Shown in pieces: positions 46,391 through 62,540 of a stretch of DNA of 64,000 bases; within the stretch, counting starts at the first letter, position 1, and each line of letters opens with the position of its first letter. This stretch comes from Candidatus Uhrbacteria bacterium (lineage in GTDB: Bacteria > Patescibacteriota > Patescibacteriia > SG8-24). The notes beneath the pieces are model-generated. The model worked only from the letters and a program-made list of their open reading frames with translations. It did not search any database and was not told the DNA's origin. The stretch is taken from contig JAFGIV010000013.1 of the NCBI GenBank assembly GCA_016929435.1, positions 15,822 to 79,821 of the forward strand. Direction: 5' to 3'. The position numbers were made by a program, and so were the translations under genes.

Positions 46391-46441
46391 GTTGTCCCGA
46401 AGACAGGCCGTCAATAAGCCAAAAACGAGGTCGGGAGGCTG

Positions 46442-46470
46442 TTGACTGTGTCGGATTCGGTTGCTATAGT
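46442..46470 (+). promoter_or_regulatory. Sigma70-type promoter (TTGACT-17-TATAGT) for rpsU
   Basis: Sequence match; an AGGAGG Shine-Dalgarno at 46519-46524 precedes the GTG start. Confidence 0.5.
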
Positions 46471-46533
46471 GCTGTTAGGCAAGAGTCGAGTTTAGGGGAG
46501 GCCTAATTTAAGCCTGAAAGGAGGTCGAGGAAT

Positions 46534-46782: not shown

Positions 46783-46834
46783 GTGGATCGCCGGTTAAGA
46801 GGTCGGTCATGCCCATGCCCGACCGGTTGCCAAC

Positions 46835-47293
46835 ATGACTGTCCAAGAGAGAATCGAAAGCGATTTCATCAGGGAGATGAAGGCCGGTAACAGGCCGGTG
46901 GTATCCGCGCTTCGGATGCTGAAGGCTGCCCTGAAGAACGCCCAGATAGAGAAGATGGCGCCATTGGATGACAGCGGGGCCATTGAGACCATATCCCGCG
47001 AGGCCAAGAAGATGCGGGATGCCCTTGAGACCTACCGGTCTGCCGGCCGCCAGGACATGGTCGACCGGGCCGAAGCGGAGATATCCGTTTTTCAGGCCTA
47101 TCTTCCCCAACCCCTCGGCAGGGAGGCCCTTGAGGGGATCGTCCGCTCCAAGATATCGGAATTGGGGGCCGTTGGGCCGAAGGACATGGGCCGGGTCATG
47201 GCAGCGGTCATGAAGGAGGCCCAGGGGCAGGCCGACGGTTCGGTTGTGAGCGAAATGGTAAGGTCTGCCCTCCTGGTCGGGTCAGGTGGCTGA
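46835..47293 (+). CDS. GatB/YqeY domain protein
   Basis: 152 aa; GatB_Yqey-like helical domain (ALRMLKAALKNAQIEK...AVMKEAQGQADGSVVSEMVRSAL). Confidence 0.7.
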   Translation: MTVQERIESDFIREMKAGNRPVVSALRMLKAALKNAQIEKMAPLDDSGAIETISREAKKMRDALETYRSAGRQDMVDRAEAEISVFQAYLPQPLGREALEGIVRSKISELGAVGPKDMGRVMAAVMKEAQGQADGSVVSEMVRSALLVGSGG

Positions 47294-47335
47294 CCGGGCA
47301 GTACGGCCATCGGATCCGCTGTTAAACCTTCACCC

Positions 47336-49564
47336 ATGCTTGGAAGGAAACACCGGGAAAAAATCGCCGCCGTGACGGCCGACGGTCCGGGACACCGGAT
47401 CGGTTGGTTGTTGGCGGCGGTTTTGCTTTTGGCGTCAGCGGCGGCGTGGCCGGAAGCGGCCATGGCCCAGACGTCCGCCGCCGATCAGCTGGCGGCCGGA
47501 TTGGAGTCCACCCAGACAATCGGCCTGGGGACGGCCGATCTGGTGACCATGGTCGGGCGGATCATCAACGTTGCCCTGGGGATTTTGGGCGTCATAGTCG
47601 TTGTCCTGTTCGTGTACGCCGGTTACGTGTACATGATGGCCAAGGGCGATTCGGGGGAGGTCGACAAGGCCAAGCGGATCATGGTCAGTACGGTCATCGG
47701 GCTTGTCATTGTCCTGTCCGCCTACGCCATTACCCAGTTCATCCTTCGCACCATTTTGGGGAGCGTCGGACCGGGCGGCGGCCAGTCCGGTTCGGGGGGT
47801 TCGGTCTTGATGTCGAACTACTGCACGGACTGCGGCCCGGAACAGTTGGGCAACGGGATAATCTCCTACCACTACCCGACGGTCAACCAGACGGACGTGG
47901 AGCGGAACACCGGAATCGCCATTACCTTCAAGCTGCCGCTGTTGCCGTCGTCGGTACTGAAGAACTATTTCGATAACGGGACCTACGATACTGCGGATGA
48001 CGGCTGGTGCCCGACGGATTGCTCCGCGGAAGGGCACAACCCGATCGATCCGGCCAATCCCCCGACCTTTTACCTGAACGACGATAACGTCAAGGTCGTC
48101 CCGTTCGCTGACCTTCAGACGCCTTCCGGAAGCGCGGGTTCGGCGGAGGCCTTTGAGTCCCGGTACGACACCGATGCGGTCCTGTCCGGAGGGGAGGCAA
48201 CCGCCGTGCTGACGGCCGTTTCGCCGGTTTTTGACGTCAACGGATTGGGTCAGACCCTGGTGATCATGCCTACCGAATTTTTGGGAAGCAGCCAGGCTGA
48301 CGTGAACTACAGGGTGGCCCTGCGGGGCGGTTCGGACGAGGGGGCCATTCGGGTATTTGCCTGGGACCCGGATTCCGGCGCACCGGTATCGCGTCCGGCC
48401 TTCGACCGCCTCAATCCGGACGGGTCGTATTTCTGGAATTTCACCACCGGCACCCTCTTGGACCTGACCCCGCCGGAAATAACCGCCGTGGTACCCAAAA
48501 CCGCCAAGAACCTGCCGGTTGACGGCGACGATTCCGGACGGCTGTTCCGCAACCAGCTCCTGCAGGTCTATTTTTCCAAACCCATGAATCCGGCGACGGT
48601 TTCCGGGATCAACGGCAGCGGTTTCGGCTTCATTGAGACCTACTACAGGGACGGGGCGTCATGGAAGGTCCTGCCGGGAACGTGGGTCGTGGCGGCCGGG
48701 TATCGGGCCGTTGAGTACGTCCCTGACATGCCCTGCGACGGCATTACCGAAAACTCCTGTGGGGATAAGGTGTTTTGCCTGCCGTCGGATACCTTGATTG
48801 CCGTGGCCGTAAAGCCGGCCAGCGTCGGGGAACAGCCTCCCCGGGCCGCGGCCCTGAACGGCGTCGTTGACATGGTCGGCAACGTCCTGGACGGCAACGC
48901 CGACGGGGAGCTTTTGGGGCCGGGTCCGGTGGGAATCGGGTCATGGACCATGAACGGCTCCCTTATCCCCGGCACCTCGGTTTGGGCCAATTTTTCCAGG
49001 GATACCGTCATTTGGCTTTATGCGGTCGGAAACCGGATAGACCTTGAGCCGCCGAAGATAACGGCCGTAGACCCCACCAACCTTTCCAGCCGGCTCGGGC
49101 AGCCCTACCCGGACGGGTCGTCGCGGTTTCCGGTCGACCAGCCGATCACCTCCACCTGGACGAAGTCGATGAGCATCAAGTCCATGATCACCGGTCCTGA
49201 TTCCTACGGTCCGGCCACCATCGGCCTGCGGGCACAGGAGATAGCCAAGGACGGATCGGGGATCGGTTCGCCGGCCTTTACGGTCGAACCTGTCCTGGTT
49301 GACGGGGATACCCGCACCAGGATGGTCATGACCCACAGGATTTTCCTCACCGCCAACGATCTCGGATGGACGCCTCTCGACGCCAACCCCTCACTTCCAG
49401 TCTATATTCCGGTATTCAAGTCCCGCCTCCAGGATACCCGCCAAAACTGTTTCTACCCGAGTGAGGCGATCAACTGCTCGGGGATCGGGGAGATCAGCCC
49501 GTTTTGCTGCAGCGATTCGGTCAGCGCATCCGCCCTGCCGGCCTGTAACCCTAGCCTGCCGTAG
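47336..49564 (+). CDS. Secreted/membrane-anchored surface protein (742 aa): signal peptide, pilin-like double-TM N-terminal module, Ig-like (SbsA-type) repeats
   Basis: Signal peptide ending AMA|Q. Module ...MVGRIINVALGILGVIVVVLFVYAGYVYMMAKGDSGEVDKAKRIMVSTVIGLVIVLSAYAITQFIL is shared with the next gene. Gly-rich linker; repeated DLTPPEITAV/DLEPPKITAV Ig-like segments; C-terminal Cys cluster. Confidence 0.6.
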   Translation: MLGRKHREKIAAVTADGPGHRIGWLLAAVLLLASAAAWPEAAMAQTSAADQLAAGLESTQTIGLGTADLVTMVGRIINVALGILGVIVVVLFVYAGYVYMMAKGDSGEVDKAKRIMVSTVIGLVIVLSAYAITQFILRTILGSVGPGGGQSGSGGSVLMSNYCTDCGPEQLGNGIISYHYPTVNQTDVERNTGIAITFKLPLLPSSVLKNYFDNGTYDTADDGWCPTDCSAEGHNPIDPANPPTFYLNDDNVKVVPFADLQTPSGSAGSAEAFESRYDTDAVLSGGEATAVLTAVSPVFDVNGLGQTLVIMPTEFLGSSQADVNYRVALRGGSDEGAIRVFAWDPDSGAPVSRPAFDRLNPDGSYFWNFTTGTLLDLTPPEITAVVPKTAKNLPVDGDDSGRLFRNQLLQVYFSKPMNPATVSGINGSGFGFIETYYRDGASWKVLPGTWVVAAGYRAVEYVPDMPCDGITENSCGDKVFCLPSDTLIAVAVKPASVGEQPPRAAALNGVVDMVGNVLDGNADGELLGPGPVGIGSWTMNGSLIPGTSVWANFSRDTVIWLYAVGNRIDLEPPKITAVDPTNLSSRLGQPYPDGSSRFPVDQPITSTWTKSMSIKSMITGPDSYGPATIGLRAQEIAKDGSGIGSPAFTVEPVLVDGDTRTRMVMTHRIFLTANDLGWTPLDANPSLPVYIPVFKSRLQDTRQNCFYPSEAINCSGIGEISPFCCSDSVSASALPACNPSLP

Positions 49565-49567
49565 CGT

Positions 49568-52500
49568 ATGGTCAGACAAGCCCTTTCCGCAAGAAAAACG
49601 CTGGCCGCCATCCTGGCATTGGGTTTGGGGGCGGTTTTGGCCGTTCCCGCCCTGGCCCAAGTCGATGTCGGCCTGGAATCGGCGGCCGCCATTGGCCTTA
49701 CCACCACTGACATTCGAACGATCGTTTCCCAGGTAATCAACGTTTTCCTGGGTCTTTTGGGTATTGTGGCGGTTGCGCTGATAGTTTACGGCGGATACGT
49801 CTACATGATGGCCAAGGGGGACCAGAACGAGGTTCAGCGCGCCAAGAAGATATTGGTGAACGCCCTCATCGGGCTGATCATAATTTTGGCCTCATACGCC
49901 ATCGCCTCATTCGTGCTGCGGGCGATTTCCGGAGGCAGCGGCGGAGAGGTGGGGGAGGGGGATTGCCCTCCGGGGGCCACCTGCAGCTCCTCCTTCCCGT
50001 CCCCGGGCAACTCCCTCCTGCTGAACGGGGTCATTCCGAGCGGCAGCGGCCCGAACGGGATGGGTTGGACCAGGGATAGCCTGCCCAGGATCGTCTTTAA
50101 CCGCAAAATCGACGCAACCACCCTGGATGACAGCCGCATCAGGGTTACCCGCTGCAACAGCCGGATGGACGGGGAGACGATCGCCGATTTCAGGAACAGC
50201 GCCTGCAATACTGCGGTATCCGGGGAAGTCAGCCTGGTAAACGAGACCACTGCCGTGTTCCGACCGGTCGGACTGGAGAATGAGGGTCTTTTTGACGGTG
50301 ACTACTGGTATCGGCTGGAGCTTCGGGGGATCCCCCTGCCGATCAGGAGCCTGGACGGGAAGGACCTGGCATGCCTGACGGCCCTGCCGGGAGACGGGGA
50401 TTACGATTCCTACGTTCAGAACCTGCCGTCTAATTCCCGGGTCTGCATTAGGGCCATTGCCTACAACACCCTAATTGATACCGGACCGCCCACCGTAGCC
50501 ATCAGTTGGCCCAGGGACGGGCAGTCGATCTGTGCCGATACGACCGAGGCTTCGGCCGTGGCCAGGGACGATGTCCTGGTTTCGGGGATCCGGTTCTCTC
50601 TTTCCGATCCGGCCTCGCCGTCCGACCCGCTTTCCCTGGCCTTCCCGTCGAACCCCTTGGACATCCCCAATTCCGGGCAGGTGACCGGTCCGTTTACCGC
50701 CTCCGCCACGATTTTCGGCAGTCACCTCAACGTTGGACAGGAATACAGGTTTTCGGCCGTGGCTTCCGACCTCCGTTTCCCGAACCCCGAAGGGGAGACT
50801 GTTGGGGTTGATTTCAGCGTCAGGCCCCAGCACTGCTGCGACGGCCAGCTGAACGACGACGAGAGCGGGGTGGACTGTGGCCCTGATTCCGGCTGCGGGT
50901 CGTGCCCGGGGGACGGGTGCACGGAAAACGGCGACTGTTCGTCCGGTTTTTGCGAGGAAGGCGTCTGCGTTTCCCTGCCGCGAATAGTCTCCGTTGACCC
51001 GATTGATCCCAATACGCAAGTTTTTGGCGGCGGTCCGGGGACCCTGGTTACCCTGAACGGCGAGTACTTCGGCGGGGCGGTCGGGGTCGTGGAGTTCTAT
51101 GACGGTACGCATGCCCTGACCGCCGAACCGTGCCTTCCGGGAGCCTGGACCAACGGCCAGGTGACCGTTAGGGTTCCTGAGGGGGTGAAGGTGGGAGGGC
51201 GGTATTTCGTCCGACTGACCAGGTCCGACAGCCGACACACCAGCACGGAAGCCGGACAGGAGGATGCCTACGGCTGGCTGGGGTATTTTCAGGAGAACGG
51301 GAATAACACCCCGGGCATCTGCCTGATCAGGCCGGCCAGCGGCAGCGAGGGCGACGTTTTTGAGGTTGTCGGTGACGGTTTCGGTGACGGTTCGGTGGGT
51401 GACCTGACGGTTAGTTTCGGGATATCCAACCCTTTCACGGTGGTGCCGGATTCCCGGACAGCGTCTTCCCTGACGGCCAAGGTCCCGCGGGCCCCGGAGG
51501 GCACCTATCCGGTTCGGGTTTCCGGATCCGGATGGATGACCACAAACGACCCGAAGTTCGCCGTCCTTCTGCCCTCCGAAAGCATGCAGCCGAAGATCGA
51601 GGGGATTTCGCCGAACGCCGGCCCGGTCGGAAATTACGTTACGATCAGCGGTAAGGGGTTCGGCAGCCAGCGCGGGCGGGTGGTGTTCCTGTTCGGGGAC
51701 GGACTGAACGAGGAACGGGCCATTGGGGCGGATACGGTCTGCGAAGACAGCTGGAAGGACTCCTACGTTACGGTCAAGGTACCGAAACAGTACGAGTGCC
51801 AGGAAGGAAGCGCCTGTCCCCTGCAGTTGGGCACGCACCGGATCCGGGTGGAGACGGCCAAGGGGCTGAAGAGCAACACCGTTAACTTCACGGTCAACAC
51901 CGATCCCCTGACCCCGAACATCTGTTCCATCAAGCCGGATAACGGCCCGCCCGGCACGGTCGTGACGGTGGGCGGGGAAAACCTTGGATCCGGTCCGGCC
52001 GCCGCCGCTCCCCTGAACGCCGTCGGATACGAGTGCCAGGACCCGAACCAGACCGGATGCGACATCAACGGCGTCGCCATGTCCTCGGAGGTCTCCTCCT
52101 GGCAGGTGAAGGCCCTGAAGTCAATCGTTCCGGGCAACAGGCTTAGCGTTGCCACCTGGCCGGACAGCGGCGATGTCCATGTCTGGTCCTACAATGTCCG
52201 CAGCGGAAACGGCCTGCCGTTCCTGGTCCAGGACTGCAACGACGGCGGGGACCGGGCCTGCCCCGCGGGTTTCGTGTGCTGCCAATCCGGTATCTGCGAT
52301 GACGGTTCGTCCAGCCCGACCGGCCGTCCCTGCGACTTCAGCCGCACCAGCGAGTTCGCCTGGCGTTTGAGCACGGAGATGATGCCCGTACCCCCCCAGC
52401 TTCTGACCTGTCCGTCATGCGGGGCGGTCGCCTGTCCCCTGACCGACGGCCTGCAGAGCCCCTCCCCGTTTCCGGGGTCGCGGGATGCCTGCGTCAACGC

Positions 52501-55500
52501 CAACATTGAGGCGGTGATCAGCCAGCGGCTGGAGGTTCCGTCCGGTGTCTCCGCGGCGGTTTCCGTTCTGTCCTGCGGTTCCGGGGAATCGCCGGATTCC
52601 TGTGTCGATGTGACAGGTGAAATGTCCCTGACGGTTTCGGCGGTCGGGGCGGGAGGGGGAAGCGGCCTGGTCAGCATCCGGCCGTCCGGCGGGGATTTCC
52701 TCCTGCCGGATACCTGGTACAGGGTCACTCTCAAATCCGACGGGCTTAGGGAAAACCTGACCGGGAACCGTACGGCCTTTGACGGCGACAGGGACGGCCT
52801 GCCGGGCGGCGATTATGTTTGGGAGTTCCGGACCAAGGATTCCCCCTGTGCCCTTGCGTCGGTAAGCGTAACGCCGAGCGAATACAACATTGACCACTGG
52901 AAGGGACAGCCGTCCCCGGACGACAGCGGTTTCAGGGCCGGCCTTCAGGCCGCCAACTGCAACAGCATCACCTGTGATCCCCTGAGCTATTCCATCGGGT
53001 GGTCGGTATCCGATCCCATGACGATATCCAAGGTGACGACGGCCAAGGCCTGTCACCAGAAGGTAGAGGCCCTGAAGGAAACCCTAATCGGGGAATTGGT
53101 CGACCTTTCGGCCAATGTCCGGCCTGTAGGGGAAACCCTGAGCCGGACCGGGAAGGCGGGGATTACGGCCCGGTTCGCCGATCCGGAGGTAGCGGGATTT
53201 GAGCCTGATTGCGATGAGGCCTGCGTCAACGCCGCCATCGGCATGACGTTCAGCACGCCGATGGAACCGAATTCCGTAATCGCCGGCAATACCGTCCTTC
53301 TCAAGACCTGCCGAAACCAAAGCTGCAACGAGCCTTTCGAGACGGCCGGGGCGGTCGGTCTGGTCGGCATCGAAAGCTATGCTGGCACTGATTCCGACGG
53401 CTATGTCGGATTCAGCCTTGATACCGACTCTGACCTGGCGCCGAACACTTTCTACCTGGTGATGGTGAAGGGCGGAGGGAACGGCGTGATGAGCAAGAGC
53501 GGCAAGACCCTGGTCGGCACCAACCTTACCGATTCCTCCGGAACCCCCTGGTTTACCTGGCGTTTCCGGACCAAGGACAGCAACCTGCCCTGCCAGCCGA
53601 GTCGGGCGGAAATAGTACCAAGGAACGCCGAGTTCAGGTATGTCGGACAGAAACTGCCGCTTTTCGTCCGCACCTACGGTTCCCCCGATTCCTGCAGCGC
53701 CGAAGGGCAGGCCCTGAACGCCGGCGATTACGGCTGGAGTTGGGGAAAGACGGCCAATGGCGTAGTCAGCCGGTTCCTGACCTCTGGGTCGGCCACTGTC
53801 CTGGATACCAATCCGGCCGTCCCGATCGGGTGCTCCTCCAGTTGCCTTAAGGTCGGTTCCCAGACGGCCCGGCCCCAATGCGGCAACGGGAAGGTCGAAT
53901 TAGGGGAGGATTGTGACGGAGGCAGCGGCTGCTCCCCCACCTGCCTGAACACCGGTTCCCCGACCTGCGGCAACGGTGTCCTTGATCCTGGGGAGGATTG
54001 CGAGTCGGTCGGCGGGATATTCCCTCCCGGGTGCTCCGACTGCCTCAATGCCGGATCGGCCCAGGGGAACTCGACCTGCGGCGACGGGTACGTTGGGGAC
54101 GGCGAGGATTGCGACGGGACCAGCGGCTGTGACCCCGTGTCCTGCCTAAATTTGGGGACCTTGCCCAGGTGCGAGGCCGTTACCGCACCCAAACCGGGCG
54201 TTAACTGCATAAACTATTGCGGAAACGGGATTTTGGAATACGGGGAGGAGTGTGAGGCTGCAGGCGGCACCTTTCCCCCGGGTTGCGACAGGAAAACCTG
54301 CCTGTGGGCCGGGACACCCAAGTGTTCCGATCCTGAAGGCGCCAAATGCTGCGGCAACGGGATTACGGACAGCGGGGAGGATCCGGGTTGCGAGTTCGGG
54401 TTCGGCCAATCGGCCGAATGGTGCGACGACCGGTGCCTGAACCGCGGATCCTCATACCTTTACGATTCGCCCAGCTTCTGCGGAGACATGGTTTTGGGCA
54501 GCGGGGAGGAATTGGGGTGTGAGGTGGCCTCCACAGGCCAGCCCGGACCGGCCGATCCTTTCCAGGTGATACTCGGGGGCAAGCCCCTGGCCACGGCCAT
54601 TGACCCGGCCACCGGATCGGCGACCGACACGGTAACATCCCGGACCGGGGGGATTTCGGCATCCAACCAGGGTGAAGCCACCGTCAGCCTTACCTGCCGC
54701 TGCCGGGAGGAGGACGATCCGCACGGTTTCTGTGAGTCGGTGGGGGAAGGTTTGGGGTGCGACGACATCGGCTGCTGCTCGCCGGCTCCCGGCGTGGCCG
54801 GCTCTACGCCGGCGGACGGCTCCTCCAACATCTGCCGCAATGCCCTTGTCAGCGTTGTTTTCGATGCGGCCATCAGTCCAGACTCGGTCAACGGCAGCAG
54901 TTTCCGGGTCGTGCGGGACGCTGGTTTTGGCACGCCGGCCTGCCGGTTCTGCAGTAACGATCCGGACAGGGCCTGCCTGTCCGATGGGGATTGCGGTTCG
55001 GGCGGTACCTGCCAGGACGGGACGGTGGAGAACGGCGGGAAGATACTGGCCGCTGTCGGCACGGGGGAACCGTCCGAAGACGGCGGGTTATGGGATCGGT
55101 TCGTCCGGTTCGTCCGCCGGCTGTTTTTCCGGTCAGCGTCAGCCCAGACTGTACAGACCTTCTGTCGGGTTCCCGGCCAGGTCAGCCTGACCGGACAGGA
55201 CACCGTTACCTTTACCCCGTTCGGCGTAATGTCCGGAACGGTAGGCCACCACATCCTTTTGACCGGCGGCAGCGACGGAATTCGCTCGTCCATGGGCGTG
55301 CCCATGAAGGCGGACCGGAGGATATCGTTCGTCACCTCGGACAGCGTCTGCGAAATAGGATCGATCCGGATCGATCCGGAATCGGTCCTGATCCAGGGCA
55401 TTGAGGGGGAAAACTCCTCCTTTGTCCTGACGGCCCATGCCCAGGCGGCCGGCCAGCCGGTCGGGACGGAAATCGTTTCCACGCCGGCCTATCGGTTCGA

Positions 55501-58500
55501 CTGGAACTGGAACCTGCCGGTCGTCACCTCTCCGGTGGCGCTGACGGTATCCGACTTTTTTCCTGACGGCCAGGGCCACAGTCCGGTATCCGAAGTCAGG
55601 GCCAGGACAGGAGCGGGATTCCCGAAGGAGGGGAGGGAAACCGTAACGGTCCGGACCGACATATACGGTTCGGGGACATCGGTCACCAAAACCATGACTG
55701 CCTCTTCCGATGCGACGGTCATGCTCTGTGAGCACCCGTGGCCGGATTGGCATGTCTGCAGTTCGGCCAATGACGTCTATTATCCCTATCCGGGGCACGC
55801 CGTCGACTGTTCCAGGGCCGGCCAGCAGATGTGGTATCCGTTCATAGACGGAAGCACCCTAACCTCCTTCTATTACTGTCGTGACGGTGCCACGGCCGGC
55901 GATTCCGGACAGTTGCTGCCGGCATTGAGCGGCGTTAAGATCGGCAGTAACCGGGCCGACATCCTCCACGAATACCTGTTCACCTTTCCGGGTTCGGCGG
56001 GGGAAAACTGGGTTAGGGACGCCATCGGACTGCGGGTTTCCAAGAACATGGAGCATTTCGGCATTTCCGACTGGTATTCCCGGCAGGGTTTCGTCGGTTC
56101 CCCGCAGCCGGTAACGATGGACGGCTATGAGGGCCTGAAGGAGGGACGGAGCGTTTACGTAAATGCCGCCGCCAAGACCGCCGTTTCCCCGAACCTGTAC
56201 ACCAATGTGTATACCCTGTCCCACAGTGACGGGGCTTCCCCGGAGACGGTCGGCATTTTCAGCCAGATCCTCGGAAACATGGACATGAACTGGCGGGTCC
56301 TGACCGACAGCCGCTATTGCGTGATTGACGACAGGCAGGTCCTGGTTGACGGGCAACCGGTATATTGCGAGAAGGACCGGGACTGTCGGGTTACGGCCGG
56401 TGACGACGGCCGGGAATCGTTCCCATCCGAAAGGTCCGTTTGGACCTGTCAGGCCGACAGGAGCAAGGTCCGACGCGATGTCCTGCGCTGGTCAGACATC
56501 CATACCATCCGTCTGGCCCTGAACCGGGCCCGGTCGGTAGGCGGATACCCGTCCCTGGATTCCGGGACCTACCTGCGCGGCTGGACCACCAGTGCCTGGC
56601 CGTCCTGGAACGAGGTCTTGGCGAACCAGATCGGTTTGGGGTCGCTTCCGGCCGATCCGGCGGAGGGTTTCATGGACTGCGGAACCGGCGGTTCGGGGCA
56701 CGATTCAGTGACCTGCTGGGATCCGGCTGTCAGGACCTACCGGTGTCCGTCCGGATCGCAGACATATACGTATAGGGGTTTGGGCGGGCTGAACTATGTC
56801 CTGGAGGCGATGTTCGAGTATGCGGACGGAAACTGGGCCAGCGGCACTGCCTGTTTGGGCAAGGGCGAGCCTGCCTGCCGGGCAAACGACCGTTGCGAAT
56901 GGCTTTCCTCCGACGGCTCCCCTTCGGAATGCCAATACCGGGGCGGCGGTCGGATAAGGGTCAGGGGTATCGGTAACGTTGAAACCACGTGCTCATCCGG
57001 GGTTACCGTTGGCATCGGCTCGGTTTGCGGTGACGGCCTGGTCGGGGAAGGGGAGGAATGCGAGCCGGGAGTGTCGTCCCCGCGCCAGATTCCCTGCGCG
57101 GCGGATTCGCGGAGCGGTTTCCGCCATCAGGCCTGCAATGACCAGTGCCGGTGGCAGGACTCCAGCGGCTGCATTACCGGTTCCTGCGGCGACGGCATTG
57201 TCCAGACGGAAGCGGGCGAGGCCTGCGATGACGGGCCCCTGAACGGGCAATACGGCCGATGCGGCAATGACTGCACCTATTCTGCCTCCCGATGCGGCGA
57301 CGGCGTCCGTCAGGCCAACGAGGCCTGCGATTGTGCACCCGGCGGGTTGCCGAACGGCACCTATGCCCTGAACGGCGTCCTGGCATCGTCCGGACAGCGG
57401 TGCGGAAACTCCGGACACGCCGTTCCGGGGTGTGCCTGGGACTGTTCCGGTCCCGGACCGCGCTGCGGTGACCTGGTGGTGAACGGCAGCGAGCAGTGCG
57501 ACGGCGGGACGGAGGAATATCCCAGGCTGTGCATCGGAAAGAACAACGGCAACCCGAAACGGCCGGTCATGACCGGCAACACCTACAGTCCGGTTCCCGG
57601 AAACGCCTACACCGGGTGTCGGACAGATGCCGATTGCCCGAGTGACCAGGTTTGCGCCGCCCTATGCGATCCTGACAGGCCGGAGCGGGTCTGGCGCAGG
57701 AACTGCCAGAGCAACGACCCGTTCGATTGGTTCGATAACGATGACGGCAGGGCCTGCACCTGGACCGTTTGGCAGTGCGGCTCGGCAGGTTTCTGCGGCA
57801 ACGGGGTCTTGGAAACGGGGGAGGAATGCGATGACGGCAATGACGACAATATGGACTCCTGCATCATCGACCCGAACGGCACCGGAACCTTCGGGACGCC
57901 GGTGATGTGCCGGAAAGCCGCCTGCGGCGACGGCTACGTCAGCCCGTCCAACAACGAGGAGTGCGATGCCGGCAGCCAAAACGGCCAGTCCTGCATTGCG
58001 GAATACGGCAAGACCTGCTCGTTCTGTTCGACGGGATGCAAGTTGGCCTACGTTTCCGGCGGGTTCTGCGGGGACAGCGTCATCCAGAACCGTTCCTTTG
58101 TCCCTCCGGGGCCGGAGGAATGCGAAGGGAGCCTGGAGCTGGAGAACTGGGTCTGCGTCAGCGACCGCCCGGAACACCAGATGTTCGGAAAGATGACCGG
58201 TTTGGCCATATGTGACCACGAAAGGGGGTGTGTCCGGGGGTGTTCCGATTCCGGGTCGGTCCCGTGCCTGGAGACCGGGAACCCGCTTGCCGGATCGGAT
58301 TACGACGGGGAGGCCGGATGGGACAAGCCGAACGATGCCCTTTTGGCGGCCATCGGTTACGGTTATGACCTGGGACAGACGGTTTTGGCTGACGGGCCGT
58401 GCGATCCGGACTGGGATAACGACGGCGTGCCCAACGGTTCGGACTGCCGCCCGACGGTCAGTGAGGTGCATCCCGCATACCAGGTGGTGGCCTCGGACGG

Positions 58501-59320
58501 CAAGGTCTTGAGGGTTCCGGCTGCCTTTGACGACTGCGACGGCTGCGATAACGACTGCGACGGCGTAGTGGACAACGGCGATCCCGACATATTCAAGAAG
58601 GTGGACATCCTGTTCGTGGTGGACGGTTCCGCATCAATGGACACCAGCATTCGGGGGCTGACCATGTTCACGGCGGATTTGGCCAGGCAGATGATACCTC
58701 CGGATAGGCCGGATGGGGTTCCGGCTGAAGTGGGAACAAAAGTCAAGCTGGGCCTCATCCAGTACTCGTGGAAAAGCAAGGATGATGAGGGTTCGGGCTA
58801 CAGGCGCGAATTAGACCTCTCCACCCCCAAGGTCTATTCCGAATGGGCGGATGGTTTCGCTGACAAGTGTGAGGGGGACTGCACCACCCAAGGCGGAATA
58901 GAAGCCGGAACCGCCATGCTGTGGAAGATACTCCAGGACCGGTTCGTCGATGAAAGCACCATGCCGGACATCACTTGGGACCAAGACGCCGTCCCCTACA
59001 TCATCATCATGACCGATGACAACCCCTACCAGCTGGTGGATGTCATCGAGAAATCGGCCCCCTCGGATATACGCGACATGTTGGGTGACGATCCGAGGGC
59101 CCAGATATTCGCCCTGCAGATGAGAACGAGAAGATGTTCCCCAGGTTCCTGTTCAGAGCATTGGGATATCGTTTTCGCCAACTACCCGGAAAACGAGACT
59201 CACCTCAAGGTTGCGGATCCGGGTAAGGATTTCGAGTATTACAGGGGAGAGTTCGGCCAGTTCTTCTACGACTATATCCTGAGACACATCTGCTACGCCT
59301 ATGTCTGCAGATTCGACTGA
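49568..59320 (+). CDS. Giant cell-surface protein (3250 aa): pilin-like N-terminal anchor module, IPT/TIG repeats, numerous Cys-rich CxxCGDG...EECDDG repeats, C-terminal VWA domain
   Basis: Uninterrupted 9.75 kb ORF. N-terminus paralogous to the 47336 gene. IPT/TIG-like segments (PRIVSVDPIDP...GGGPGTLVTLNGEYFG; PKIEGISPNAGPVGNYVTISGKGFG; PNICSIKPDNGPPGTVVTVGGENLG). More than 15 repeats of the CGNG/CGDGxxxxGEECD type. VWA with MIDAS DxSxS (DILFVVDGSASMDTS). Confidence 0.7.
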   Translation: MVRQALSARKTLAAILALGLGAVLAVPALAQVDVGLESAAAIGLTTTDIRTIVSQVINVFLGLLGIVAVALIVYGGYVYMMAKGDQNEVQRAKKILVNALIGLIIILASYAIASFVLRAISGGSGGEVGEGDCPPGATCSSSFPSPGNSLLLNGVIPSGSGPNGMGWTRDSLPRIVFNRKIDATTLDDSRIRVTRCNSRMDGETIADFRNSACNTAVSGEVSLVNETTAVFRPVGLENEGLFDGDYWYRLELRGIPLPIRSLDGKDLACLTALPGDGDYDSYVQNLPSNSRVCIRAIAYNTLIDTGPPTVAISWPRDGQSICADTTEASAVARDDVLVSGIRFSLSDPASPSDPLSLAFPSNPLDIPNSGQVTGPFTASATIFGSHLNVGQEYRFSAVASDLRFPNPEGETVGVDFSVRPQHCCDGQLNDDESGVDCGPDSGCGSCPGDGCTENGDCSSGFCEEGVCVSLPRIVSVDPIDPNTQVFGGGPGTLVTLNGEYFGGAVGVVEFYDGTHALTAEPCLPGAWTNGQVTVRVPEGVKVGGRYFVRLTRSDSRHTSTEAGQEDAYGWLGYFQENGNNTPGICLIRPASGSEGDVFEVVGDGFGDGSVGDLTVSFGISNPFTVVPDSRTASSLTAKVPRAPEGTYPVRVSGSGWMTTNDPKFAVLLPSESMQPKIEGISPNAGPVGNYVTISGKGFGSQRGRVVFLFGDGLNEERAIGADTVCEDSWKDSYVTVKVPKQYECQEGSACPLQLGTHRIRVETAKGLKSNTVNFTVNTDPLTPNICSIKPDNGPPGTVVTVGGENLGSGPAAAAPLNAVGYECQDPNQTGCDINGVAMSSEVSSWQVKALKSIVPGNRLSVATWPDSGDVHVWSYNVRSGNGLPFLVQDCNDGGDRACPAGFVCCQSGICDDGSSSPTGRPCDFSRTSEFAWRLSTEMMPVPPQLLTCPSCGAVACPLTDGLQSPSPFPGSRDACVNANIEAVISQRLEVPSGVSAAVSVLSCGSGESPDSCVDVTGEMSLTVSAVGAGGGSGLVSIRPSGGDFLLPDTWYRVTLKSDGLRENLTGNRTAFDGDRDGLPGGDYVWEFRTKDSPCALASVSVTPSEYNIDHWKGQPSPDDSGFRAGLQAANCNSITCDPLSYSIGWSVSDPMTISKVTTAKACHQKVEALKETLIGELVDLSANVRPVGETLSRTGKAGITARFADPEVAGFEPDCDEACVNAAIGMTFSTPMEPNSVIAGNTVLLKTCRNQSCNEPFETAGAVGLVGIESYAGTDSDGYVGFSLDTDSDLAPNTFYLVMVKGGGNGVMSKSGKTLVGTNLTDSSGTPWFTWRFRTKDSNLPCQPSRAEIVPRNAEFRYVGQKLPLFVRTYGSPDSCSAEGQALNAGDYGWSWGKTANGVVSRFLTSGSATVLDTNPAVPIGCSSSCLKVGSQTARPQCGNGKVELGEDCDGGSGCSPTCLNTGSPTCGNGVLDPGEDCESVGGIFPPGCSDCLNAGSAQGNSTCGDGYVGDGEDCDGTSGCDPVSCLNLGTLPRCEAVTAPKPGVNCINYCGNGILEYGEECEAAGGTFPPGCDRKTCLWAGTPKCSDPEGAKCCGNGITDSGEDPGCEFGFGQSAEWCDDRCLNRGSSYLYDSPSFCGDMVLGSGEELGCEVASTGQPGPADPFQVILGGKPLATAIDPATGSATDTVTSRTGGISASNQGEATVSLTCRCREEDDPHGFCESVGEGLGCDDIGCCSPAPGVAGSTPADGSSNICRNALVSVVFDAAISPDSVNGSSFRVVRDAGFGTPACRFCSNDPDRACLSDGDCGSGGTCQDGTVENGGKILAAVGTGEPSEDGGLWDRFVRFVRRLFFRSASAQTVQTFCRVPGQVSLTGQDTVTFTPFGVMSGTVGHHILLTGGSDGIRSSMGVPMKADRRISFVTSDSVCEIGSIRIDPESVLIQGIEGENSSFVLTAHAQAAGQPVGTEIVSTPAYRFDWNWNLPVVTSPVALTVSDFFPDGQGHSPVSEVRARTGAGFPKEGRETVTVRTDIYGSGTSVTKTMTASSDATVMLCEHPWPDWHVCSSANDVYYPYPGHAVDCSRAGQQMWYPFIDGSTLTSFYYCRDGATAGDSGQLLPALSGVKIGSNRADILHEYLFTFPGSAGENWVRDAIGLRVSKNMEHFGISDWYSRQGFVGSPQPVTMDGYEGLKEGRSVYVNAAAKTAVSPNLYTNVYTLSHSDGASPETVGIFSQILGNMDMNWRVLTDSRYCVIDDRQVLVDGQPVYCEKDRDCRVTAGDDGRESFPSERSVWTCQADRSKVRRDVLRWSDIHTIRLALNRARSVGGYPSLDSGTYLRGWTTSAWPSWNEVLANQIGLGSLPADPAEGFMDCGTGGSGHDSVTCWDPAVRTYRCPSGSQTYTYRGLGGLNYVLEAMFEYADGNWASGTACLGKGEPACRANDRCEWLSSDGSPSECQYRGGGRIRVRGIGNVETTCSSGVTVGIGSVCGDGLVGEGEECEPGVSSPRQIPCAADSRSGFRHQACNDQCRWQDSSGCITGSCGDGIVQTEAGEACDDGPLNGQYGRCGNDCTYSASRCGDGVRQANEACDCAPGGLPNGTYALNGVLASSGQRCGNSGHAVPGCAWDCSGPGPRCGDLVVNGSEQCDGGTEEYPRLCIGKNNGNPKRPVMTGNTYSPVPGNAYTGCRTDADCPSDQVCAALCDPDRPERVWRRNCQSNDPFDWFDNDDGRACTWTVWQCGSAGFCGNGVLETGEECDDGNDDNMDSCIIDPNGTGTFGTPVMCRKAACGDGYVSPSNNEECDAGSQNGQSCIAEYGKTCSFCSTGCKLAYVSGGFCGDSVIQNRSFVPPGPEECEGSLELENWVCVSDRPEHQMFGKMTGLAICDHERGCVRGCSDSGSVPCLETGNPLAGSDYDGEAGWDKPNDALLAAIGYGYDLGQTVLADGPCDPDWDNDGVPNGSDCRPTVSEVHPAYQVVASDGKVLRVPAAFDDCDGCDNDCDGVVDNGDPDIFKKVDILFVVDGSASMDTSIRGLTMFTADLARQMIPPDRPDGVPAEVGTKVKLGLIQYSWKSKDDEGSGYRRELDLSTPKVYSEWADGFADKCEGDCTTQGGIEAGTAMLWKILQDRFVDESTMPDITWDQDAVPYIIIMTDDNPYQLVDVIEKSAPSDIRDMLGDDPRAQIFALQMRTRRCSPGSCSEHWDIVFANYPENETHLKVADPGKDFEYYRGEFGQFFYDYILRHICYAYVCRFD

Positions 59321-59338
59321 TAGTCACCCCCAAACGCC

Positions 59339-59842
59339 ATGAGAAAGTTCGCCATTGCCATTGTCCTGCTGTCCGTCCTGCTGACGGCCGGAATAGTGCT
59401 GGTCGTAAGGGAACGGAACAGACATTCGGTTTCCGGAGTCCCAGACGTCCCGCTGGCCGGAAACGTGGGATCCGAATCCGGCCTGACTGCGGATAATTCG
59501 GGCCCGACCCAGCCGTTCTGCGGGGACTATGTCTGCGACACCGGGGAGACGATTGCCGGCTGCCCCATTGACTGTCCGCCGACGGTCATGTCCGGGGTGG
59601 AAATACGGAACCAAACCGCCGACGTTTCGTGGAAAAGCCTGATACCGGTGACCATTTCCGTCCGGTACGGCTCCGGTACCCTGGACCGCACCGCCAACCT
59701 GGATCGGGCATCAACGGAACACGAGTTAAGGCTGGAGGGAATCGAGCCGGATACGATATACGACCTGTGCGTTGTTTCGGTTGGGGAGGACGGAACCCGG
59801 TATCCGGAATCGTGCGATGAGTTCCGGTCTCCGGCGGAATAG
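59339..59842 (+). CDS. Small membrane-anchored protein with Cys-rich motif and FN3-like domain
   Basis: N-terminal signal anchor; CGDYVCDTGETIAGCPIDC motif, the same pattern as the repeats in the 60536 gene; beta-rich C-terminal domain. Confidence 0.5.
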   Translation: MRKFAIAIVLLSVLLTAGIVLVVRERNRHSVSGVPDVPLAGNVGSESGLTADNSGPTQPFCGDYVCDTGETIAGCPIDCPPTVMSGVEIRNQTADVSWKSLIPVTISVRYGSGTLDRTANLDRASTEHELRLEGIEPDTIYDLCVVSVGEDGTRYPESCDEFRSPAE

Positions 59843-59876
59843 GGCGGCTTTTGTGGTATAGTAACGGTATAGGCTT

Positions 59877-60539
59877 ATGTTTGATTCCGTACAGGAACCG
59901 GAGGACATCTTCGCCGGGACTGATCCGGTGGCGCCGGCAGGGAACGCCGCGCCGGTGGCGACCGGGGAGACGGAGGGGTCTCCGGCCATAACGAGGAAAG
60001 GTCCGTCGCCGCTGATCCCCATTGCCGTCATTGCCCTTGTTTTTGGGGCCGTCGGCGGCGGGGGTTACTATTGGTATTCCCAGCGAACCGGCGGCCATGC
60101 CTCGGTTTTGGAGGAACAACCGGTCGAGACCGTGGAAACGGAACCCGTTCAGGAAGAGACGTTCGGGGAGGAATTGCCGGAAGGGTTTCCGGACACGGAG
60201 GGGGAGGAAACGGAAGGGATCGGAAATGGAACGGAAGGGGAGACCGAAACCGGCGGGGAGGAATCTGCGGAGGGGGAGGGCGAACCAACGGAACCGGTCA
60301 ATGCCGTTGATACCGACGGTGACGGCTTGAGCGACGACGAGGAGCTGGCGATCGGTTCCGACCCGTCGGTAACCGACACGGACGGGGACGGGCTGACCGA
60401 TTTCGACGAGGTCCGCATATACCGGTCAGACCCATTGCTGGCGGATACGGACGGCGACGGTTACCCGGACGGCCTGGAGGTTTCCGGCGGCTATAGCCCC
60501 ATCGGTCCGGGCCGCCTGTTCGAGGTTCCGGTCGAGTGA
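59877..60539 (+). CDS. Membrane protein with acidic linker and three thrombospondin-type-3-like Ca-binding repeats
   Basis: Single TM; DTDGDGLSDDEE, DTDGDGLTDFDE, DTDGDGYPDGLE repeats. Confidence 0.5.
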   Translation: MFDSVQEPEDIFAGTDPVAPAGNAAPVATGETEGSPAITRKGPSPLIPIAVIALVFGAVGGGGYYWYSQRTGGHASVLEEQPVETVETEPVQEETFGEELPEGFPDTEGEETEGIGNGTEGETETGGEESAEGEGEPTEPVNAVDTDGDGLSDDEELAIGSDPSVTDTDGDGLTDFDEVRIYRSDPLLADTDGDGYPDGLEVSGGYSPIGPGRLFEVPVE

Positions 60540-61741
60540 TTTTTACGGATATGAAGGAAGACAGCGACAAAAACACGGAAGGGATAGGGCAAGTCCCTTC
60601 AGGGAACGGGGAGGCGGCACCGAAGAATCCGGAACCGCCGGTTATCCATGTCATTCCCGATGAGTTTCACGGGGCGGCCCTGAAGCGGAAAGTCAGGCTG
60701 TCCCAGCCCGAAAAGCCAAAAAAGACCCCGCCGCCCAAGGTTTCGCCTGAAAAGGCCGGACCGCCGGCAAAGGCATCCGGACAGAAGCCCGATGGCGCCG
60801 ACAGGCGGAAAAGGGGGATACTGATGGCGATCATGGGGCTGTTCATCCTGGCAATCATCGGTCTGGCGGCCTATTATTTTCTGTACGTGAGAAAGGCCCC
60901 GCCGGCGGAGGAGGTGCCGATCACCGAGGAACCGGAGATTCGTTGCGGAGACGGCCGCTGCGATGACGGCGAGGATGCGGTGACCTGCGCTTCCGACTGT
61001 GCGGTGAAGGCCTTTTGCGGGGACGGAACCTGCCAGGAGTCGGAGGGGGAGGATTGGCGCTCCTGTCCGGGGGACTGCGAGGTTCCGGAACCGGTATGCG
61101 GGGACGGGATCTGCGAGGAGGCCATCGGGGAGGGTTACGAGACCTGTCCGGAGGACTGCGAACCGCCGGCCCCCAGCCCCTCCCCGGATACGGACAGCGA
61201 CGGCATGACCGATATCGAGGAGACCGAAATCTACGGCACCAACCCCTATATCCCGGATACGGACGGGGACAGTTTCGTTGACCTGAACGAGCTGCTCAAC
61301 CTGTTTAACCCGTCCAAGATTCAGCCGTCCGTCCTTTTGGACAATCCCGGAGTCGCCGAATTCGGGAGTCAGACGGAAGGGTATCTCCTGATCTACCCGA
61401 AGGCCTGGACCGTCAGCGAGGATGCGGACAGGAAGACCGCCGTCTTTCAGGCGGGCAGCGGAGAGTCGATATCCGTTTCCGTGGACGAGAACACGGAAGG
61501 GTTGAGCCTGATGGATTGGTACCTGTCCGGGAACCCCTCCCTCCGCAGTTCGGAGGTTCCGGTGTTCCGGACAAAATACGGCTACGACGAGATCGTCAGC
61601 CAGGACCAGATGGTTTCCCACGTGGGGATAGACGGGCGGATTTTTACCGTCAGGTACGAATTGGGCAACCAGCTGAAGATTCGCTACAAGGCGACCTTTA
61701 AGATGATGGTCAACAGCATTAAGCCGCCGTCAGGGCTATGA
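60536..61741 (+). CDS. Membrane protein with three CGDGxC...C..DC mini-repeats, TSP3-like repeats and a C-terminal globular domain
   Basis: Pro/Lys-rich N-terminus, single TM. CGDGRCDDGEDAVTCASDC / CGDGTCQESEGEDWRSCPGDC / CGDGICEEAIGEGYETCPEDC; DTDSDGMTD, DTDGDSFVD. GTGA overlap with the upstream gene and ATGA overlap with ybeY. Confidence 0.5.
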   Translation: MIFTDMKEDSDKNTEGIGQVPSGNGEAAPKNPEPPVIHVIPDEFHGAALKRKVRLSQPEKPKKTPPPKVSPEKAGPPAKASGQKPDGADRRKRGILMAIMGLFILAIIGLAAYYFLYVRKAPPAEEVPITEEPEIRCGDGRCDDGEDAVTCASDCAVKAFCGDGTCQESEGEDWRSCPGDCEVPEPVCGDGICEEAIGEGYETCPEDCEPPAPSPSPDTDSDGMTDIEETEIYGTNPYIPDTDGDSFVDLNELLNLFNPSKIQPSVLLDNPGVAEFGSQTEGYLLIYPKAWTVSEDADRKTAVFQAGSGESISVSVDENTEGLSLMDWYLSGNPSLRSSEVPVFRTKYGYDEIVSQDQMVSHVGIDGRIFTVRYELGNQLKIRYKATFKMMVNSIKPPSGL

Positions 61742-62172
61742 TTGACGTGGAATGCTCCGGCCGTTTCCCGTCCGGATTGGGCAGGGACGAGGCCGTCAGC
61801 CTGGTGCGGAGGGTGATCGGGACTTCCGGTGACTGGAAAACCGCAACGGTCAGCCTGTCCCTGGTCAATGACCGTGAAATCAGGCGGATCAACCGGAAAT
61901 GGCGGGGGGTTGACCGCCCGACCGATGTCCTTTCGTTCTCGTATCCCAGGATCGGTTCCGGCCAGGTGCCGAAATCCGGTGACGTCGTCATTTCCCTGGA
62001 AACCGTCCGGCGCCAGGCCAAGACGAACCTCCGGACGGTCCGGGAGGAGCTGGCCCTGATGATCGTTCACGGCTGCCTGCATCTCCTGGGGTTTGACCAC
62101 GATACGGCGGCCAGGGAGAACCGGATGTTCCGCATCCAACAGGACATGCTGTTGGGAACCGGATTTTTCTGA
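61738..62172 (+). CDS. ybeY: rRNA maturation endoribonuclease YbeY
   Basis: HGCLHLLGFDH zinc-binding motif. Confidence 0.88.
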   Translation: MIDVECSGRFPSGLGRDEAVSLVRRVIGTSGDWKTATVSLSLVNDREIRRINRKWRGVDRPTDVLSFSYPRIGSGQVPKSGDVVISLETVRRQAKTNLRTVREELALMIVHGCLHLLGFDHDTAARENRMFRIQQDMLLGTGFF

Positions 62173-62177: not shown

Positions 62178-62540
62178 ATGATGATCAGCCCCAAAAAGGT
62201 AATCCGGAGTTTCCGCCACGCCCTTCGGGGGACGGTCAAGGTGTTTCGGGAAGAGCACAGCTTCAGGGTGGAGCTGGTCGCCGCCGCCGCCGTTACGGTC
62301 CTGATGTTCGCTTTTGGGCTCCGAACCTCAGAGAAGGCCATTCTCGTACTGGTCATGCTTCTGGTCCTCGTCCTGGAGCTGGTCAACAGCGTCTTCGAGC
62401 GGATCGCCGACATGCTGAAGCCGCGCTTCCATCCCTATGTGGAGGACCTGAAGGACATCATGGCGGCCACTGTCCTCGTTTCTGCGGTAGGGGCGGTTGC
62501 CATCGGGCTTTTGATTTTTTGGCCCTATATTGTAAAATAA
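62178..62540 (+). CDS. dgkA: DgkA-family membrane kinase (diacylglycerol/undecaprenol kinase)
   Basis: 120 aa, 3 TM; ELVNSVFE and DLKDIMAATVL blocks as in DgkA. Confidence 0.75.
   Translation: MMISPKKVIRSFRHALRGTVKVFREEHSFRVELVAAAAVTVLMFAFGLRTSEKAILVLVMLLVLVLELVNSVFERIADMLKPRFHPYVEDLKDIMAATVLVSAVGAVAIGLLIFWPYIVK

Follow-up and report, generated by a model that had tools for sequence, protein, structure and literature searches.

Positions 47,336 to 61,741 of the stretch studied here, a 64-kb window (64,000 nucleotides in all) on contig JAFGIV010000013.1 of a Candidatus Uhrbacteria bacterium, are occupied by five plus-strand genes, which encode a protein of 742 residues (A), a giant protein of 3,250 residues (G) and three small accessory proteins of 167, 220 and 401 residues (Table 1). 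A preliminary description made from the DNA letters had presented these open reading frames (ORFs) as a unit of secreted or membrane-anchored proteins centred on a giant surface protein in a reduced organism. All five ORFs were present with exactly the coordinates it gave, the tight co-directional packing of exported or membrane-anchored proteins around the giant was borne out, and the share of the window attributed to G (15%) agreed with the computed value in Table 1. The organism is a patescibacterium: NCBI names it Candidatus Uhrbacteria, places it in the Patescibacteria/Parcubacteria group and holds the exact giant protein as 'IPT/TIG domain-containing protein [Candidatus Uhrbacteria bacterium]'.

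A five-gene cluster of exported or membrane-anchored proteins

Within the cluster the genes are separated by gaps of 3, 18 and 34 nucleotides (nt). Two 4-nt overlaps had also been claimed: that between the 401-residue gene and ybeY stood, in keeping with a translationally coupled ybeY at the end of the locus, while that between the 220- and 401-residue genes hinges on the GTG start of the latter and is lost if translation begins at the in-frame ATG at 60551, a start that fits the NCBI version of the protein (396 residues) and results in an 11-nt gap. Signal peptides or anchors, predicted for all five proteins, were found in each: read by eye, A has a 44-residue leader with an AXA site (AMA followed by Q) and G has a signal peptide over residues 1-30 (ALA followed by Q), and the small proteins have one hydrophobic anchor each.

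Chimeras do occur among the repeat-rich giant ORFs of metagenome bins, and a few of the orthologs found in GTDB genomes look split into two ORFs (L056, L067, L075 and L086), so that G might be an artefact of assembly or annotation, or a decaying pseudogene array of repeats. This reading, to which we attach next to no probability, is effectively refuted: positions 46033-59564 of the window are identical in the independent Logan assembly of SRR13394437 (0 mismatches over 13,532 nt); the 9.75-kb reading frame is uninterrupted and gene-like in its GC content at third codon positions (GC3, 0.77); and 96 homologs, nearly all of 2000-4300 residues, are colinear with G along ~2850 residues, with synteny kept. 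The identical second assembly and the colinear homologs dispose of the artefact that the preliminary description had named as fatal to its claim. Moreover, the GC3 of the five genes (0.72-0.79) is the same as that of the flanking housekeeping genes; thus the cluster is native to the genome.

Table 1. Features of the cluster and of its flanks, in window coordinates.
Feature	Position	Strand	Basis or remarks
Sigma-70-like promoter match before rpsU (TTGACT-17-TATAGT, with TG)	46442-46470	+	Consensus match only
rpsU-like ORF	46534-46782	+	By position; equivalent ORF has a Ribosomal_S21 match in 4/6 loci
yqeY	46835-47293	+	PF09424 YqeY
Gene A, 742 residues	47336-49564	+	ORF list
VirB2-like pilin hairpin of A, residues 69-141	47540-47758	+	Pfam T4SS_pilin, E 9.9e-10, 38.8 bits
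Gene G (giant), 3250 residues, 15.2% of window	49568-59320	+	ORF list; Pfam; homologs
VirB2-like pilin hairpin of G, residues 46-122	49703-49933	+	Pfam T4SS_pilin, E 2.1e-10, 41.0 bits
Four IPT/TIG Ig-like domains of G, residues about 470-900	50975-52267	+	Pfam TIG, E 4.1e-20, 4 stretches
Conserved core domain of G, residues 2040-2480	55685-57007	+	No Pfam match
DUF4215 (Myxococcus-type CGDG...EECDDGN) Cys-rich repeats of G, residues 2470-2900	56975-58267	+	Pfam, E 1.6e-13
C-terminal VWA-like domain of G, MIDAS-type motifs	58598-59167	+	Sub-threshold Pfam match and hhalign to orthologs
167-residue accessory gene	59339-59842	+	ORF list
220-residue accessory gene	59877-60539	+	ORF list
401-residue accessory gene, GTG start	60536-61741	+	ORF list; Lys/Pro-rich tail, transmembrane segment at residues 92-119, Cys knots, TSP3-type repeats, C-terminal PsbP-like domain
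ybeY	61738-62172	+	Pfam YbeY, E 2.8e-32
dgkA	62178-62540	+	Pfam DAGK_prokar, E 5.1e-28
ftsA	62574-63821	+	FtsA families on the equivalent gene in six loci; window protein recovers that gene as query

A pilin hairpin heads both A and the giant

The N-terminal module common to A and G was identified in Pfam as a VirB2-like type IV secretion pilin hairpin (T4SS_pilin, PF18895; cut-off 26.6 bits); the 'shared N-terminal module' of the preliminary description is therefore a known domain that was overlooked there. Gene A also matches NF045849, a pilin-like conjugal transfer family of mycoplasma integrative and conjugative elements (ICE) (NCBIfam, E 7.4e-8), and several orthologs of the giant carry PF04956 (TrbC/VirB2) in addition. 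A transmembrane scan placed the two hydrophobic segments at residues 49-82 and 94-122 of G and at 69-104 and 114-141 of A, and the loop between them is charged and reads MMAKGDxxEVxxAK in both. The two proteins are 51% identical over this ~115-residue module and show no significant similarity beyond it, and among the ORFs of the window the hairpin is confined to them. It makes up the first 19% of A and the first 4% of G, which at 742 and 3250 residues fall outside the size of small stand-alone pilins (about 100-160 residues).

An exhaustive search with the 95-residue hairpin module returned 34,480 clusters at 50% identity (E at most 0.001), and architectures were counted in the best 150 of these minus 10 already collected. 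Among these 140, 40 have a single N-terminal hairpin followed by an ectodomain of at least 500 residues, 90 are 'poly-pilins' with 2-15 tandem hairpins, and eight are shorter than 200 residues. A genuine 127-residue pilin (P0343), lying in a five-gene array of small pilins (L088), is 56% identical to the hairpin of the giant. The hairpin module is thus a true relative of the pilins of type IV secretion system (T4SS) loci, and its fusion to large ectodomains is common. Two other short proteins that had come up as possible stand-alone paralogs, being 50-70% identical to the giant's hairpin, were rejected: P0278 is a fragment of a giant at a contig end, and the sequence of P0233 runs on into the giant's linker.

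Examples of the poly-pilins are P0218, with six hairpins in 552 residues, and P0245, with 15 in 1775; this architecture was not found discussed in the accessible parts of the papers on Patescibacteria pilins and T4SSs that we consulted. Likewise, literature searches, including ones aimed at the architecture or the locus, returned no paper with a pilin-fused giant or with this locus, within a coverage of the literature that is incomplete.

Stalk, repeats and distal domain of the giant

From the N-terminus onwards G comprises the signal peptide, the pilin hairpin, an immunoglobulin-like (Ig-like)/TIG stalk, a conserved core, DUF4215 Cys repeats and a C-terminal VWA-like domain. The TIG and Big_5 domains that had been predicted were both found in the whole protein (E 1.4e-15 and 57.5 bits for TIG, rising to 72 bits on the segment; E 1.4e-13 and 51.9 bits for Big_5 in Pfam). 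Big_5/Big_7-like domains lie in the stalk at residues 160-350, 960-1335 and 1740-1782 (Big_5 E 4.3e-6 and 2.3e-4 on segments, the others weak), and weak DUF4215-like Cys repeats at residues 1430-1660. The predicted Cys-rich repeats held as DUF4215 in the segment of residues 2470-2900 (3 stretches, 51.2 bits with the cut-off at 27; a scan of the whole protein reports none at E of at most 0.01) and failed as TIGR02232, a family which the NCBIfam search did not return for G. A weak match to TSP_3 lies between these repeats and the C-terminal VWA-like region.

A VWA domain with a metal ion-dependent adhesion site (MIDAS) had been predicted as well, and the claim stood in part: the domain does not reach the Pfam threshold, and is supported by profile homology to the VWA domains of orthologs and by a D-x-S-x-S motif (D3019-G-S-A-S). 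A second MIDAS-type motif is the T-D-D triplet in IIIMTDDNP (residues about 3141-3149). In three orthologs scanned (P0047, P0023 and P0039) a VWA domain scores above the Pfam threshold at the equivalent C-terminal position, and an hhalign comparison of the window protein plus its closest homolog with the profile of the orthologs' domains gave a probability of 95.9% (E 5.1e-9) with both motifs aligned. Direct searches were uninformative, since the C-terminal 261 residues of G found nothing relevant among PDB sequences and in phmmer the C-terminal region aligned to the closest homolog (P0002) only, and the assignment therefore rests on this two-step profile comparison. On these grounds G likely carries a C-terminal VWA domain with MIDAS-like motifs.

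No hydrophobic segment was found in G beyond residue 122 by the transmembrane scan, no LPXTG is visible at its C-terminus (which reads ...ICYAYVCRFD), and no HemolysinCabind/RTX family was among the Pfam results for the whole protein and for nine segments covering residues 130-3250.

The conserved core and the accessory proteins

The core of G (440 residues) is present in 84 of the 96 homologs. Its AlphaFold2 model, built on a 22-sequence alignment, is confident (pLDDT 83.6, pTM 0.85), and comparison with solved structures gave the first half a PsbP/Mog1/LpqN-like fold and the second half no recognisable match; in Foldseek, agreement was marginal only and the second half again unmatched. Confident models of both the core and the C-terminal domain of the 401-residue protein are structurally similar to solved members of the PsbP/Mog1/DUF1795-like fold, and by profile-profile comparison the latter domain is a homolog of the core's PsbP-like part (probability 95.6%, E 1.2e-8). 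Moreover, a hidden Markov model of the core also matches the C-termini of 401-like proteins in three GTDB loci. Searched against PDB sequences, the profiles of the core and of the 401 family gave insignificant matches only, save to the TSP3-type repeats in Bap.

The 401-residue protein belongs to a family of about 70 orthologs, none of them annotated. It has three CGDGxC...E...C..DC knots (in the family, CGDxxCxxxE...C..DC) and a weak TSP3 match (14.8 bits), and its orthologs carry PF18884. The predicted cytoplasmic tail of the family holds a motif with the consensus EPVIHVIPEKFYGAALK; in the N-terminal part encoded by 60536-60830 it takes the form PVIHVIPxxFxGAAL, in which I32, H33, V34, P36, F39 and A42 are invariant or at least 90% conserved among 65 sequences. 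The predicted cytoplasmic tail of the 220-residue protein has a motif of its own, EPEDIF (59877-59930). The conserved tail motifs of the two proteins could be binding sites for a cytoplasmic partner. As a separate observation, ftsA lies two genes downstream of the 401-residue gene with its conserved tail motif.

The 220-residue protein is bitopic: its N-terminus is cytoplasmic, a transmembrane segment spans residues 42-64, and an acidic linker leads on to three Ca-binding repeats of the bacterial TSP3 type; the TSP3 repeats expected at the locus were thus found as TSP3_bac (PF18884, E 5.7e-20; 3 stretches, 71.3 bits with the cut-off at 25). Membership of the MtsD/CglD families was rejected for it, as the NCBIfam scores of 26-31 bits compare with cut-offs of 400-800 and reflect shared TSP3 repeats only. 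The 167-residue protein has a signal anchor at its N-terminus and a single CGDYxC...C..DC knot, and its match to fn3 is weak (Pfam E 0.0095). Gene A encodes, behind its hairpin, an ectodomain of ~600 residues with weak Big_5 similarity and a C-terminal Cys cluster.

A fixed place in a housekeeping neighbourhood across the class ABY1

Synteny was viewed around six homologs of the giant (25-42% identity) on their metagenomic contigs. All six loci read lepB, hisS, rpsU, yqeY, a PF18895 protein of 600-915 residues, a PF18895 giant of 3169-4128 residues, two or three small proteins (most of them with TSP3), ybeY, dgkA, ftsA and ftsZ; yqeY is uncalled in one of them (L006), and nrdR follows in five. 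Orthologs of A (full-length, 27-56% identity), of the TSP3 protein or proteins (for the 220-residue protein, orthologs or paralogs) and of the 401-like protein are detectable in 6/6, and the 167-residue protein is poorly conserved, with one detectable ortholog (23% identity) across the six. The conserved set is therefore A, the giant, the TSP3 protein(s) and the 401-like protein, and the five-gene unit of the preliminary description holds for these and not for the 167-residue gene.

GTDB genomes, one per species, were scanned with the alignment of the 401 family as query, and the best 80 of at least 263 relatives were examined. Where at least 6 kb of upstream sequence was present, 52 of 55 loci have a long core-bearing ORF and the other three have two ORFs with pilin hairpins; where at least 3 kb lay downstream, ybeY was found in 60/68, dgkA in 55/68 and ftsA in 62/68. 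Conservation of the gene order in related genomes, a check suggested at the outset, was thus strongly positive, both in the six metagenomic loci and in most of the best 80 GTDB loci. The titles of these 80 name Uhr-, Magasanik-, Falkow-, Komeili-, Buchanan- and Kuenenbacteria or the Parcubacteria/Patescibacteria group, and Table S1 of PMC12102498 assigns all six candidate phyla to the GTDB class ABY1. Many metagenome-assembled genomes with the locus (L011, L013, L014 and others) are titled 'uncultured Gammaproteobacteria bacterium', labels that are evidently wrong.

The giants vary in length on a common plan. Shorter ones (about 2000-2400 residues, as in Kuenen- and Komeilibacteria) end directly after the core, and gene A is sometimes absent; the universal frame is therefore hairpin, stalk and core, with DUF4215 plus VWA as a distal extension of the Uhrbacteria-type proteins. 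Other lineages bear LamG, BNR/Sortilin, sialidase-N or LVIVD modules in place of DUF4215 and VWA.

The series rpsU-yqeY ... ybeY-dgkA is an ancestral conserved operon in Firmicutes such as Bacillus subtilis, and the five genes look like an old insertion between its yqeY and ybeY. That the cluster sits as an insertion in a housekeeping neighbourhood, and not as a free-standing island, and is conserved throughout ABY1 speaks no less for a core function than for host-specific attachment. Co-transcription of the five genes with the housekeeping operon is plausible; a long operon might begin at the promoter match before rpsU, and terminator-like sites are not in excess within the locus (20 found against 18.7 expected from shuffling). 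The 34-nt gap before the 220-residue gene (59843-59876) contains TGGTATAGT, an extended -10-like element that may drive transcription of the last accessory genes and ybeY from within the locus.

In L006, just 3' of ftsZ (28743-32387, minus strand), there are four small genes, two of them with faint or weak N_methyl prepilin-type matches; the same stretch holds a 2899-residue PKD/LamG protein, a second giant surface protein, apparently tied to type IV pilus-like genes.

A possible adhesion complex or envelope scaffold

Evenly poised in our judgement, and the reading that we prefer, is that the locus encodes a membrane-anchored, vertically inherited adhesion complex of the ABY1; such a complex would best be read as constitutively expressed. 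Under this reading A and G would be exported by the Sec route and their leaders cleaved (lepB heads the conserved neighbourhood, which may bear on the cleavage or have nothing to do with it). The hairpin would stay in the membrane with its charged, basic loop in the cytoplasm, as in VirB2 pilins, so that the C-terminal ectodomains of both proteins would lie outside; the hairpin probably also mediates oligomerisation of A with G or recognition by an assembly factor. The ectodomain of the giant would form a long fibre stiffened by disulfides and Ca2+, and its distal PsbP-like/VWA head (VWA in the Uhrbacteria-type lineage) would bind a ligand on the surface of a partner in a metal-dependent manner. 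The bitopic accessory proteins would form a membrane-proximal base, possibly through contacts of PsbP-like with PsbP-like domains, and the whole would adhere to the partner's surface, most plausibly that of a host cell.

The main argument for adhesion is that distal and middle modules (LamG, BNR/Sortilin, sialidase-N, VWA and DUF4215) are swapped between lineages with hairpin and core kept, as one would expect if a ligand-binding head sat on a constant frame. Giant membrane proteins have been suggested to act as host-attachment factors in another candidate phyla radiation (CPR) bacterium (PMC8080830). The adhesion-type modules from which the preliminary description had argued for a host-attachment apparatus are present (TIG, Big_5 and Cys-rich repeats), so that the lack of such domains, which would have spoken against it, is not the case; host attachment itself is an inference from domain content. 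Its statement that the combination is not a known named system also held, as no matching named system was found. The cluster is thus a good candidate for the attachment apparatus of the class ABY1.

Several points weigh against this reading: i) the VWA match of the giant lies below the Pfam threshold (17.7 against 23.8 bits, E 0.0046) and covers profile positions 1-57 only; ii) the MIDAS threonine of this domain has no clear placement, and we are not confident of it; iii) the extension of DUF4215 plus VWA is missing in the lineages with shorter giants, and VWA therefore cannot be the universal working part; iv) the hairpin, whose rank as the best-conserved part of the protein (median identity to homologs of 50.7%, with the core at 37.5% and the proximal stalk at 34%; the highest in 73/73 comparisons) suggests a role beyond passive anchoring, owes part of this identity to its hydrophobic composition; v) co-transcription is read from spacing and consensus scans alone; vi) to our knowledge no member of ABY1 is in culture and no host is known; and vii) the fixed position among housekeeping and division genes and the class-wide conservation fit a structural envelope role equally well.

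The last point leads to a second explanation, in which the locus encodes a scaffold of the envelope or surface layer (S-layer), or an architecture of the division site, and no adhesin. Class-wide conservation at one chromosomal position in a housekeeping operon is the main argument for such a structural role, which would account for the universal presence of the locus and its place beside ybeY-dgkA-ftsA-ftsZ and would agree with its native GC3; PsbP-like, LpqN-like and DcrB-like domains are typical of envelope-biogenesis and lipoprotein-type proteins, and Ca-binding TSP3 repeats with disulfide knots would suit a rigid lattice. However, neither SLH nor any other S-layer family appeared in the Pfam results; VWA/MIDAS, TIG, LamG and BNR are adhesion or carbohydrate-binding modules; the swapping of lectin-like heads is more usual in ligand recognition than in a lattice; and adjacency to ftsAZ may merely reflect ancestral operon order. 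We hold a structural role of this kind to be quite improbable.

Relation to type IV secretion

The hairpin also raises the question of how far A and G belong to a secretion machine. Patescibacteria carry an MPF-FATA-like T4SS on the chromosome, in most cases lacking a relaxase, and VirB2-like pilins and pilin arrays are widespread in them (PMC12102498); ABY1 genomes in Table S1 of that paper mostly encode VirB4, and its Table S3 gives VirB4 and TrsD in three ABY1 genomes and VirB3 beside virB4 in one. The T4SS loci of ABY1 are located with comF, recG and radA in the literature (cf. PMC12102498). In Southlakia epibionticum, a saccharibacterium, T4SS genes and pilins are essential for epibiotic growth (PMC10633639).

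A and G could be minor pilins, extracted from the membrane through their hairpins by an unlinked MPF-FATA-like T4SS and placed as terminal subunits, at the tip or the base, on a pilus formed by small stand-alone pilins, where the giant ectodomain would be the tip adhesin of a host-contact pilus or conduit. The matches of the hairpin to PF18895 and to the mycoplasma family NF045849 speak for this, as do its identity to the array pilin P0343 and its rank as the most conserved part of the family, which would be expected under recognition by a machine. Both termini face outwards in known VirB2/TraA pili, and a C-terminal fusion is therefore topologically allowed. Consistent with the proposal, too, are the VirB4 and TrsD of ABY1 genomes (PMC12102498) and the essential T4SS pilins of the cultured saccharibacterium (PMC10633639). 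On the other hand, the precomputed Pfam annotation of the six loci shows no T4SS family within 10 kb of the cluster, and none was found among those ORFs of the window that were scanned with Pfam. Table S3 of PMC12102498 flags the VirB2 matches of those ABY1 genomes as 'not proximal' to virB4; a helical pilus would have room for a subunit with an ectodomain of 3100 residues solely as a rare one at its end; and some lineages have just one fused pilin. On balance this extraction by a T4SS seems to us rather unlikely.

A broader form of the idea is that the hairpins are not mere anchors, and that either the relaxase-poor T4SS or self-assembly of hairpins mounts the giant adhesin and its 742-residue partner on a pilin-based fibre or conduit. 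We think this unlikely as well; if true, the locus would encode a host-contact organelle that couples attachment to the transfer of DNA, nutrients or effectors, 'pilin-fused ectoproteins' would join stand-alone pilins and tandem poly-pilins as a third architecture among T4SS pilins, and the hairpin would provide a general route by which Patescibacteria display surface proteins.

Comparison with known systems

The VirB2-like pilins of the Patescibacteria MPF-FATA T4SS resemble A and G in having a signal peptide and two hydrophobic helices around a short charged loop, in occurring as divergent tandem paralogs and in belonging to PF18895. They are small, and no fusions of them are described in the accessible portions of PMC12102498 and PMC10633639, whereas A and G are fused to large ectodomains; and unlike pilins of T4SS loci, the genes of A and G are not near virB4 and lie inside a housekeeping operon. 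The T4SS survey reports that it detected no adhesin of the PrgB kind (PMC12102498).

With the giant adhesins of other bacteria (RTX/LapA-type, MpIBP, SiiE, Bap and sortase-anchored Ig-repeat proteins), G shares an Ig-like stalk, Ca-binding repeats and distal ligand-binding modules, and like them it is by far the largest protein of its genome region. LapA-type adhesins also bear a VWA domain. G differs from these adhesins in polarity and in its anchor, with an N-terminal Sec signal and a pilin hairpin in the membrane; it has no RTX family in Pfam, no C-terminal signal for type I secretion and no LPXTG, and its organism has no outer membrane. RrgA and GBS104, tip adhesins of Gram-positive pili, carry a VWA domain with MIDAS at the far end of an Ig-domain fibre and adhere in a metal-dependent manner. 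The giant would likewise have its likely VWA domain, with MIDAS-type motifs, distal on a putative Ig-like fibre; however, RrgA and GBS104 are separate, sortase-polymerised subunits with isopeptide bonds, whereas stalk and head of the giant are one polypeptide with no sortase signal. A sortase-anchored Ig-repeat adhesin of Mobiluncus reaches 7651 residues (PMC10619420).

From a different lineage (Absconditabacteria) come the membrane proteins of Vampirococcus lugosii, a CPR predator, for which the accessible text of PMC8080830 gives 1400-4200 residues, adhesion-type domains and a proposed role in host recognition and attachment, all as in G. Their domains (WD40, PKD, DUF11 and integrin) differ from those of G, and that text reports no pilin hairpin, no conserved accessory genes and no fixed operon position for them. 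The 220-residue protein shares bacterial TSP3 repeats with CglD (NF033765) and MtsD (NF047639) of Myxococcus, which are TSP3/VWA surface proteins of cohesion or adhesion; only the repeat is shared. What appears new is the combination: a giant ectoprotein anchored by a pilin hairpin, accompanied by a set of conserved accessory proteins and encoded at the same operon position throughout the class ABY1.

Other features of the window

Between 38300 and 42200 the window has a low-GC island (GC 0.48-0.51 against about 0.60; GC3 0.39-0.54). It encodes a kinase-like AAA_33 protein (38392-38895), a putative Zn peptidase with DUF5700 (39076-40059) and a DUF218 protein (40294-40905), has two further ORFs without a Pfam match, and was probably acquired horizontally. 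There are two histidyl-tRNA synthetase-like genes (16889-18211 and 44727-46334), of which the second, in the lepB-hisS-rpsU neighbourhood, has a Lys/Pro/Ala-rich N-terminal extension of ~115 residues, provided that its TTG start is genuine. At 2033-2869, between the secY-like and adk-like ORFs of a ribosomal-protein cluster (neighbours identified by eye), lies the gene of a presenilin-type signal-peptide peptidase (PF06550, E 9.9e-20), and at 32534-33145 on the minus strand that of a protein with an IS200-like Y1 transposase domain (PF01797, E 1.1e-11).

Implications

Members of the class ABY1, among them Uhrbacteria and Magasanikbacteria, abound in groundwater and freshwater, and how cells attach to a partner is an open question for most Patescibacteria outside Saccharibacteria. 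The locus offers a concrete, class-wide target at a predictable place in the genome: a putative surface fibre of ~3000 residues with a conserved head, a partner protein and conserved membrane accessories. Moreover, the PF18895 hairpin also heads very large ectoproteins and poly-pilins, so that many of the proteins listed as 'VirB2 homologs' in Patescibacteria genomes are not necessarily subunits of a pilus, which affects how their T4SS repertoires and 'pilin arrays' are read. If the hairpins are indeed handled by a T4SS, the often essential T4SS of Patescibacteria would be linked to adhesion.

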